DNA of 64,000 nt from a virus (Duplodnaviria > Caudoviricetes), in IMG/VR virus record IMGVR_UViG_3300046170_000323; one strand, written 5' to 3'. Positions 54,228 through 56,294 of this stretch are shown here, in pieces. Position 1 is the stretch's first letter. The number at the start of each line of letters is the position of its first letter. Made by a program: the position numbers and the translations under genes. The notes under the pieces were generated by a model, which did no database searches, had not been told where the DNA came from, and worked only from the letters and a program-made list of their open reading frames with translations.

Positions 54228-54401
54228 TTATTTATATAGTTTTTTGATTTCCATCATACACGCTTTCGATTCCTCGTGCATACCCATCCTTGCGAGTTCC
54301 GAAGCCGCTCTGCTGTAACCCATCATCTGGGTATACCGATCTAAGGAAGACCACAATCCCGACAACGGTGAGAAAACATAGTTTGCTACTAATGTTGTCA
54401 T
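54228..54401 (-). CDS. Small protein, possible divergent DUF1127-like paralog
   Basis: TAATG-coupled to the upstream DUF1127 gene; GYSRAASELARMG helix. Confidence 0.55.
   Translation of the reverse strand: MTTLVANYVFSPLSGLWSSLDRYTQMMGYSRAASELARMGMHEESKACMMEIKKLYK
54229..54236 (-). promoter_or_regulatory. Late promoter TATAAATA
   Basis: Exact consensus 6 nt upstream of the 54222 start. Confidence 0.6.
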
Positions 54402-55309: not shown

Positions 55310-55333
55310 AAAATGGGGGGAATAAATCCCCCC
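55310..55333 (-). terminator. Probable terminator after hsp20
   Basis: G6-ATTTATT-C6 hairpin followed by ATTTTT. Confidence 0.7.
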
Positions 55334-55344
55334 TGAGTCATTAT

Positions 55345-55794
55345 TTATTCTGTGAGAAGTTCTTCCTTCCCAGCAACTGAACCAATAGAGATCTTTCGAG
55401 GTTTCTTTTCCTCTGGGATCACATTTTCAAGTTCTACGTAAAGGATACCGTTTTGGTATTCAGCACCACGTACTACAATTGTATCCGACAAAGTAAACTT
55501 TCTACGGAACTGTCGTGCACTGATTCCTCTGTGTAGATATTGCGCTTCCGACTTTTCGTCTTTCTTACCCTCTACAGTAAGTACACCGTCCTTGACTTCA
55601 ACATCAAGTTCATCTTGGTTGAATCCGGCAAGTGCCAGTTCAATGACGTAATTATCGTCATCTACTTTGCGTATATTGTAGGGTGGGTAGTTTGGTTGAC
55701 TTGATCCTGTTTGATGCATACGATCTAGTACACGGTCAAACCCAATAAAAAATGGATCATTAAGTAAGTCGGCAGTCATTCTGCGAGTATTCAT
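55345..55794 (-). CDS. hsp20: Small heat-shock protein (Hsp20/IbpA family)
   Basis: NYPPYNI...YVIELALAGF...YLHRGISARQFRRKFTL...GILYVEL...PRKISI. Confidence 0.97.
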   Translation of the reverse strand: MNTRRMTADLLNDPFFIGFDRVLDRMHQTGSSQPNYPPYNIRKVDDDNYVIELALAGFNQDELDVEVKDGVLTVEGKKDEKSEAQYLHRGISARQFRRKFTLSDTIVVRGAEYQNGILYVELENVIPEEKKPRKISIGSVAGKEELLTE

Positions 55795-55850
55795 TTGCTA
55801 TCTCCTTTATTAAGCAAGATTGATGTTATGTACCCGATAACGGCGTACAA
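55795..55850 (-). ncRNA. ROSE-like RNA thermometer in the hsp20 5' UTR
   Basis: UCUUGCUU-AAUA-AAGGAGA pairs the UUGCU motif with the SD, leaving a bulged G; upstream hairpin GUACGCCG-UUAU-CGGGUAC. Confidence 0.7.
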
Positions 55851-55853
55851 TGT

Positions 55854-55884
55854 TATTTATATCACAAATTGAAGGTCATGTCAA
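55854..55884 (-). promoter_or_regulatory. Sigma70-type promoter TTGACA-N17-TATAAA overlapping late TATAAATA
   Basis: TTGACA at 55884-79, 17-nt spacer, TATAAATA at 55861-54. Confidence 0.85.
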
Positions 55885-55892
55885 CCAAAAAA

Positions 55893-56294
55893 TTACTTTC
55901 TTCCTATATTATATTTTACTGTAAGATCCCATTGATCTTTTTCTTTATAAGAAATGATCTTAATGTGATTTAATGGGGCAACTGGATCCTTGGTTTTTTC
56001 TTTATCAACGATCTTGAGTAGTTCCCACTCTTCTAGTAAATTTACAATAGTGTTTCGGCGTGCTTTGTCCTCGTCTGTGAAAGTATTCTGTTTACCATCT
56101 AGTATAAACAGTTCCTTAAAATGAAGGATTGCATATCTGCCTTTTTTGTGTAGGATGTGGCAAGACTGATACAGTCTTTTTTCTTTTCGTGAAGAAATAC
56201 CAATTCTTGTGAGCGTCTCTTTAATTTTTAAAAAACTATCATCAGAGGGTAATTCAATCTCGACACCAACTCCCTTAAAAATATCTTCGTTCAT
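55893..56294 (-). CDS. regA: Translational repressor RegA
   Basis: FLKIKETLTRIGISS...LYQSCHILHKKGRYAILHFKELF...RRNTIVNLLEEWEL. Confidence 0.97.
   Translation of the reverse strand: MNEDIFKGVGVEIELPSDDSFLKIKETLTRIGISSRKEKRLYQSCHILHKKGRYAILHFKELFILDGKQNTFTDEDKARRNTIVNLLEEWELLKIVDKEKTKDPVAPLNHIKIISYKEKDQWDLTVKYNIGRK

Follow-up and report, generated by a model that had tools for sequence, protein, structure and literature searches.

A ROSE-like two-hairpin leader, probably a translational thermometer, precedes hsp20 behind a late-promoter box in marine T4-like phages

The closest described counterparts of the element reported here are the ROSE-like RNA thermometers of Pseudomonas ibpA, for which reporters, probing and toeprinting have established how they work (PMC3669281). 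Hairpin II alone is sufficient in these leaders, and deletion of its bulged G locks the element shut, while hairpin I does not respond to temperature and may help to keep the mRNA stable; the P. aeruginosa element switches between 25 and 42 °C (PMC3669281). The Rfam family ROSE_3 (RF02523) corresponds to these short two-hairpin Pseudomonas ibpA elements of Krajewski, Nagel and Narberhaus 2013 (PMC3669281), and the ROSE motif is defined as U(U/C)GCU (PMC3669281, PMC11182007). The RNA thermometers known from phages are lambda cIII, the fourU element of SPbeta blyA and a sigma70 fourU element of gut Caudoviricetes (PMC11182007, 2024). A literature search on ROSE elements and RNA thermometers in connection with phage, cyanophage and hsp20, which left most subscription journals outside its range, returned no description of a phage ROSE element, and this fits an earlier reading of the present DNA, made from the sequence only, that knew of no characterised example. 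We found no paper on such a case, so that the ROSE-like leader of phage hsp20 is a known type of element whose occurrence in phages is apparently undescribed in the searchable literature.

The window analysed here is a 64,000-nt stretch of viral DNA (IMG/VR record IMGVR_UViG_3300046170_000323), and hsp20 with its promoter, leader and terminator, as well as regA, lies on its minus strand. The gene that the sequence-only reading had called hsp20 (55345..55794) does encode an Hsp20/IbpA-type small heat-shock protein, of 149 aa (Pfam HSP20, 1.8e-21). Immediately upstream is regA (55893..56294; Pfam Translat_reg, 2.2e-43), the T4 translational repressor, together with the clamp-loader genes 62 and 44, and this gene order ahead of hsp20 identifies the window as a T4-like phage. 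No terminator was found in the interval between regA and the hsp20 promoter, and the hsp20 unit is closed by a strong intrinsic terminator, G6-AUUUAUU-C6 followed by a U run (55315..55333). Among related loci, regA is found upstream of hsp20 on the same strand in 75 of 83. The two genes are directly adjacent in the window and in one further locus (L007), and small genes spanning 0.4-0.9 kb intervene in the other loci; of the cultured phages, the cyanophages S-CAM1 and DSL-LC02 have regA and hsp20 adjacent, and phage C48C1 has regA within about 0.9 kb of hsp20, with two small genes in the gap.

The hsp20 stretch of the window was found in marine and seawater metagenomes, and metatranscriptome contigs from four studies cover hsp20, some of them ending within the leader. 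These contigs give at most a hint of hsp20 expression, given that starts, strand and level are unreadable from contigs and that DNA carry-over is possible. Several other metatranscriptome contigs match solely the conserved part around the Shine-Dalgarno (SD) hairpin (55788-55826) and then diverge, one example being a 983-nt contig at a depth of 18.9; they probably represent the corresponding hsp20 leaders in related phages from those samples.

The leader had been described from the sequence as about 55 nt long with two hairpins, and we see the same arrangement: it runs for 54 nt on the minus strand, from the predicted +1 at 55848 to the AUG at 55794. Hairpin I (55830..55848) folds as a stable 5'-terminal stem-loop, GUAC-[G]-CCG / UUAU / CGG-GUAC. 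It is followed by a 9-nt linker (AUAACAUCA; 55821..55829) that is single-stranded in the folds and varies in sequence among relatives. Hairpin II (55800..55820), which masks the SD and is presumed to be thermolabile, has the RNAalifold consensus structure AUCUU-[G55815]-CUU / AAUA / AAG-GAGAU, wherein AUCUU-[G]-CUU is partnered by the 3' arm AAGGAGAU; its predicted dG37 in the window is -2.0 kcal/mol. The 5' arm contains the ROSE motif in the form UUGCU (55813..55817), with G55815 bulged, and the 3' arm contains the SD AGGAG (55802..55806), 12 nt before the start as counted from the A of AGGAG to the A of AUG. Between the SD and the AUG lies an AGCAA box (55795..55799) that is complementary to UUGCU. 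The proposed pairing with the SD around a bulged G is recovered when RNAalifold is applied to a plain MAFFT alignment, which gives CU(U/C)-[G]-CUU : AAGGAG, and in this predicted consensus structure G55815 is unpaired and invariant throughout the alignment. An alternative pairing of UUGCU with AGCAA, also anticipated in the sequence-only reading, exists as well, being the minimum free energy (MFE) structure given by ViennaRNA at 37 °C.

Set beside Pseudomonas ibpA, the phage leader has much in common with the described element. Both 5' UTRs are about 55-62 nt long, form two hairpins, precede an IbpA-type small heat-shock gene and leave the AUG unpaired; hairpin I is in both cases GC-rich, with a (U/C)GCC...GGG core and a bulged G, and in hairpin II U(U/C)GCU is in both cases the partner of the SD, again with a bulged G. 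The match is reciprocal, in that ROSE_3 finds phage leaders and a covariance model built from phage leaders (R1, see below) finds the leader of P. aeruginosa. The two differ in their promoters, which are of the sigma32 type in Pseudomonas and comprise a late box plus a sigma70 -35 in the phage, and in the position of hairpin I, which is at the predicted +1 in the phage but follows about 8 nt of leader in Pseudomonas. Hairpin II of the phage is AU-richer and weaker (-2.0 versus -3.3 kcal/mol) and is without the flanking G-C clamps noted for Pseudomonas. Unlike Pseudomonas ibpA, moreover, the phage element scores below the Rfam gathering threshold and resides in a lytic virus.

The resemblance to other described systems is looser. 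Classical ROSE elements (those of rhizobia and of E. coli and Salmonella ibpA, with three to four hairpins) share with the phage leader the U(U/C)GCU anti-SD, the bulged G, the small heat-shock gene and the masking of the SD, but they are longer, with more hairpins, and in some of them the AUG is also paired. A third hairpin is found in 14 of 50 phage leaders, which in this respect resemble the classical elements. The thermometers of lambda cIII, blyA and sigma70 are likewise phage-encoded 5' UTR structures with temperature-dependent translation, which in the phage hsp20 leader is a modelled property, and the two alternative structures of lambda cIII offer a parallel to the possible UUGCU/AGCAA alternative. 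These three elements nevertheless have other folds and motifs, none of them ROSE-type, and belong to other genes, two of them in temperate phages, whereas the hsp20 element would control a chaperone in lytic T4-like phages.

Taken singly, the window leader gives modest scores. Its fold was not significant against shuffled sequences (MFE z = -1.16), as 26 of 200 shuffles fold as well. ROSE_3 was the sole meaningful Rfam family for the leader, with ROSE and ROSE_2 giving no match. Comparison with the Rfam ROSE families had been named in the sequence-only reading as a check, and its outcome is divided: the match to ROSE_3 is full-length, but it scores 22 bits (E = 0.061) where the gathering score is 43. 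The alignment covers model positions 1-69 of 69 in every match and ends at the hsp20 AUG. ROSE_3 also matches 6 of 20 phage relatives, at 25-37.6 bits, as well as the phages Melnitz and C48C1, Polynucleobacter and other Burkholderiales. The gathering score of 43 was reached by no phage copy, the best relative scoring 37.6 bits, and the ibpA leaders of Polynucleobacter reach at most 33.5. The pattern CTTGCT-N3-12-AGGAG occurs once in the window, versus 0.10 occurrences expected.

Much stronger evidence comes from related phages. A search of IMG/VR with the window Hsp20 protein gave 80 loci, at 54-100% identity, with 50 distinct leaders. All 50 share one plan, comprising a late-promoter box, hairpin I, sometimes a third hairpin, and then CU(U/C)GCU...AGGAG...AUG; the succession of U(U/C)GCU, GGAG and AUG is likewise present in 50 of 50. 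Two hairpins are seen in 36 leaders and three in the other 14, where an extra GC-rich hairpin, for example CCGCCGG...ACGGC, is inserted between hairpin I and the SD hairpin (L011, L013-L015, L021, L027, L028, L042, L043, L058, L065, L068, L079 and L080). Because MAFFT alone misregistered hairpin I, the covariance model R1 was built, from 14 leaders of the same geometry. In the window R1 finds one site (51.9 bits, E 1.5e-9), and it finds one site also in the nearest virus record, of 119 kb; in both, the element is single-copy and sits on hsp20.

Base pairs were counted on a model-fitted alignment of the 36 two-hairpin leaders, an alignment that by its construction leans towards the structure. 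Pairing was found in 95.6% of cells, compared to 84.5% in shuffled alignments and 46-59% with slid partners, and none of 500 shuffles reached the observed value. Compensatory changes on both sides are seen in 10 of 17 pairs, of which seven (out of nine) are in hairpin I and three (out of eight) in hairpin II. Hairpin II is paired in 96% of cells, with U.G replaced by C-G in seven sequences; its 3' arm is also constrained as the SD, and the conservation of that arm alone is no evidence of pairing. Within the motif, C, U, G, C and U do not vary across the 36 aligned leaders, and this includes the unpaired G. When each RNA was folded on its own, the same hairpin I resulted for 48 of 48 leaders, which shows that the result does not depend on the fitted alignment. 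In short, the comparative evidence for the leader is far above chance, and on these sequences the original observation is confirmed.

The element is also present in cultured phages. R1 matches directly before hsp20 in Pelagibacter phage Mosig, Methylophilales phage Melnitz-3 and phage C48C1, in the cyanophages P-SSM4, P-RSM4, S-CAM1 and S-CAM3, and, weakly, in Pelagibacter podophage HTVC103P. There was no R1 match in S-TIM5 or DSL-LC02; DSL-LC02 has a diverged variant of the leader, and S-TIM5 has a different upstream region. A megablast of 20 kb of the window against isolate phages found nothing.

Some database records that surfaced in these searches call for comment. Two contigs of about 70 kb from the metagenome-assembled genome (MAG) 'Rhodobacteraceae bacterium Water_Bin34', FZLS01000007.1 (L082; coverage 86x) and FZLS01000008.1 (L083; 5.7x), encode Hsp20s identical to those of two IMG/VR phage loci, L014 and L045, and both carry promoters of the TATAAATA type; they would seem to be contigs of T4-like phages that were binned into a bacterial MAG. 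Conversely, OQ572409.1 (L142; 'UNVERIFIED: Pseudomonas phage Y7') has an hsp20 with a sigma32-type promoter, CTTGAAA...CCCTATCT, and a canonical P. aeruginosa ibpA ROSE-like leader, and this region looks like chromosomal ibpA and not phage DNA. The best Hsp20 matches in the isolate collection, at 49% identity, are enterobacterial ibpA/ibpB-like and occur at two places per record. They are the records of Campylobacter phages A11a and A18a (H41 and H42) and H43-H45, of which two, H44 and H45, are contigs of Salmonella whole genomes that had been placed among phages; the A11a and A18a records may contain similar bacterial DNA.

Upstream of the leader is an TATAAATA box (55854..55861), the consensus of the T4-type late promoter, which is read by gp55, gp33 and the clamp; its first six bases double as a -10. 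A -35-like hexamer TTGACA (55879..55884), a sigma70-type 'early' element, is found 17 nt upstream of this TATAAA. T4 late promoters have TATAAATA at -13 to -6 (PMC1524935), and by this rule transcription would start at the G at 55848, the first base of hairpin I. The late box and hairpin I are separated by five bases, and the spacing is fixed among related leaders: on folds of RNA beginning at the predicted +1, the start given by the T4 rule coincides with the beginning of hairpin I in 46 of 48 leaders, and hairpin I is at +2 in the other two. Such constancy speaks well, if indirectly, for use of the late box and for an mRNA that opens with a flush 5' stem-loop.

Among 57 phage leaders the late box is an exact TATAAATA in 32 and TATATATA in 12, and 22 have a perfect TTGACA with a spacing of 16-18 nt. 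The sigma70-type -35 is accordingly a real feature, though one restricted to certain lineages. Our promoter scan did not list the TTGACA/TATAAA site because its -10 has no T at position 6; early transcription of hsp20 from a TATAAA without the -7 T is plausible. The promoter had been read from the sequence as dual early/late and as sigma70/late-type, not RpoH-type. The latter statement holds well, with sigma32-like promoters in none of the 57 phage leaders versus CTTGAA in 41 of 47 cellular homologue loci, where TATAAATA is found in 0 of 47. As for the dual nature of the promoter, the late half has an exact and conserved box, while the early half is confined to certain lineages and has the imperfect -10 just described. 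The window contains seven copies of TATAAATA, spread over 3887-55861, compared to 2.9 expected; six of the seven are on the minus (coding) strand, and one of the seven is at 54229-54236.

The closest cellular Hsp20s, at 45-54% identity, are those of Burkholderiales (Polynucleobacter, Limnohabitans) and Pelagibacteraceae. The ibpA/hsp20 leaders of these bacteria form two hairpins, as in the phage, and score 20-40 bits with R1, so the phage leader is homologous to proteobacterial ibpA leaders. The cellular copies differ in having CTTGAA-N-CCCTTAAAT-type (RpoH) promoters, which phage copies never have, and the AGCAA box seen in phage leaders is missing from the cellular leaders that were read from these two groups. 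In a tree of Hsp20 proteins, the window protein falls inside an all-phage clade of 29 rows; cyanophage proteins form a clade of their own, and that of Pelagibacter phage Mosig groups with Pelagibacteraceae with a support of 92. The tree, taken with the cellular leaders and promoters, indicates that hsp20 and its leader are long resident in phages and that the promoter has been exchanged, possibly with more than one capture of gene and leader. The leader would have entered T4-like phages along with the ibpA-type gene, the host sigma32 promoter then presumably being replaced by the phage late promoter TATAAATA, in the window combined with the sigma70-type -35.

We next consider how such a leader might respond to temperature. 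Across the 50 leaders, hairpin II in the ROSE register has a predicted dG37 of -1.75 ± 0.56 kcal/mol and a two-state melting temperature (Tm) of 48 ± 3 °C (range 42-57 °C). Variants with UCGCU gain a C-G pair and have fewer pairs (6.1 versus 7.8), with nearly the same Tm, and this compensation between UCGCU and UUGCU suggests that selection holds the hairpin at a given, marginal stability. Measured likewise, the validated hairpin of P. aeruginosa gives -3.3 kcal/mol and 58 °C, and that of Polynucleobacter about -0.3 kcal/mol and 40 °C; the phage values are bracketed by these two and are thus within the cellular range. Some gammaproteobacterial leaders (AUAUUGCU...GAGGAUAU) do not fit the simple ROSE register, and their stability values were not used. 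In the model of the window leader, GGAG becomes steadily more likely to be unpaired on warming, with probabilities of 0.04 (5 °C), 0.15 (20 °C), 0.32 (30 °C), 0.47 (37 °C) and 0.63 (45 °C), and similar values were obtained for SD accessibility when coding sequence was added. In ViennaRNA predictions the ROSE hairpin ceases to be the MFE structure at temperatures beyond about 30 °C, and in the range of 10-30 °C the SD region also pairs with the coding sequence.

We therefore propose, with a probability of roughly 0.7, that the 54-nt 5' UTR is a short two-hairpin ROSE-like leader that acts as a translational thermometer for phage hsp20 behind a phage late promoter. Transcription would begin at the first base of hairpin I, giving a stable stem-loop flush with the 5' end that probably protects the mRNA and helps the weak hairpin II to fold. 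In hairpin II, the invariant U(U/C)GCU anti-SD would pair with the SD around the bulged G and so block 30S binding. As this hairpin is only marginally stable, it is expected to open progressively on warming, and Hsp20 synthesis would consequently be set at translation and not by a heat-shock sigma factor. If expressed from the late box, the gene would probably be transcribed late in infection, perhaps with early transcription as well in those lineages that have the -35.

The same leader could instead serve mainly as an operator through which the phage Hsp20 represses its own translation, with release by aggregating proteins, for example late capsid proteins, making it a sensor of aggregation. 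There is precedent, as the IbpA proteins of E. coli, Cedecea and Vibrio repress their own translation via the ibpA 5' UTR (PMC10474464), and this self-repression depends on Arg93; across alpha- and gammaproteobacteria, the presence of this residue goes along with RNA-thermometer leaders (PMC10474464). The window Hsp20 and 7 of 7 other aligned IbpA-type homologues have Arg at the E. coli R93 column; in the window protein this Arg is within the Arg/Lys-rich stretch GISARQFRRKF of the alpha-crystallin domain, and Salmonella IbpB, aligned with Salmonella IbpA, has Gln there. A late promoter would also time expression to the mass synthesis of virion proteins. Binding of the phage Hsp20 to the leader is, however, hypothetical; in addition, a bulged G that never varies and a hairpin II whose stability is marginal and confined to a narrow range are hallmarks of thermosensing and not of protein operators. 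As the main function of the leader we regard autorepression as a tentative possibility only. Because the phage Hsp20s have the R93-column Arg in a cationic stretch, autorepression relieved by aggregating late proteins is a credible co-mechanism, and it is compatible with a thermometer, to which it may add.

It is also conceivable that the leader does no switching at about 0-30 °C, with hairpin I stabilising the 5' end of the mRNA and hairpin II merely damping translation to a constant low level. With a Tm of about 50 °C for the isolated hairpin, well above sea temperatures, hairpin II may indeed stay closed in situ or act as a constant damper, and the whole predicted range of 42-57 °C exceeds marine temperatures. 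Leaders without AGCAA are predicted to be closed up to 30 °C (SD accessibility 0.05 to 0.11), and the role of a stabiliser would suit hairpin I, which in 46 of 48 leaders has nothing before it at the predicted 5' end. The predicted Tm of the P. aeruginosa hairpin is nevertheless higher still, at 58 °C, yet that element switches between 25 and 42 °C, which means that nearest-neighbour Tm values overestimate the working range. A damper, furthermore, needs neither an invariant bulged G nor the stability compensation between UUGCU and UCGCU. Constitutive tuning by the leader consequently seems unlikely to us.

The AGCAA box raises the question of whether thermosensing could take a different form in some leaders. 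The UUGCU/AGCAA helix is preferred by ViennaRNA at 37 °C and above and leaves the SD in an open loop, so the leader might be a two-state switch in which UUGCU has two alternative partners, the SD in an OFF state favoured in the cold and AGCAA in an ON state, when the SD would be displayed in a 13-nt loop. AGCAA is present in 27 of 38 UUGCU leaders and in 0 of 12 UCGCU leaders, and the modelled opening of the SD between 5 and 45 °C is larger and steeper with AGCAA (0.18 to 0.60) than without it (0.05 to 0.22). Between UUGCU and AGCAA no compensatory covariation was detected. On the Hsp20 tree the box changed state at least 10 times, and the tree gives no power to test for co-variation of the two elements, with four motif changes, one of them on well-supported branches. 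A two-state switch is in our estimation decidedly improbable; if true, it would give a sharper response at lower temperatures, suiting the ocean, and would be a ROSE variant evolved in phages. Separately, the idea that AGCAA is a general start-region or RegA-operator motif found no support in the window, as the box does not recur at the other start codons in the window, where matches are at or below chance.

Finally, a chance match or a functionless, decaying relic of gene transfer, which the weak scores of the window's own leader (22 bits, z of -1.16) might suggest, is scarcely tenable and is effectively refuted by covariation among loci that are not near-clonal, given that the element is kept in 50 of 50 leaders whose Hsp20s share as little as 54% identity, with compensatory changes that arose within the phage clade, a fixed spacing to a phage promoter and a presence in several cultured phage lineages.

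The RNA thermometers so far described from phages are few and of other types, namely lambda cIII and two fourU elements (PMC11182007). We see here that a bacterial heat-shock riboregulator is a standard fitting of hsp20 in T4-like phages that abound in the sea, among them cultured cyanophages as well as phages of SAR11 and OM43, and that a ROSE-like element has been uncoupled from host sigma32 control and joined to phage promoters. The fixed promoter-hairpin geometry and the narrow window of stability also make these leaders a natural series of variants for the tuning of a ROSE hairpin. If the leader senses temperature or the demand for Hsp20, a host-derived chaperone gene of phages would be regulated post-transcriptionally without the host heat-shock factor, and this would have a bearing on how ocean viruses respond to warming.
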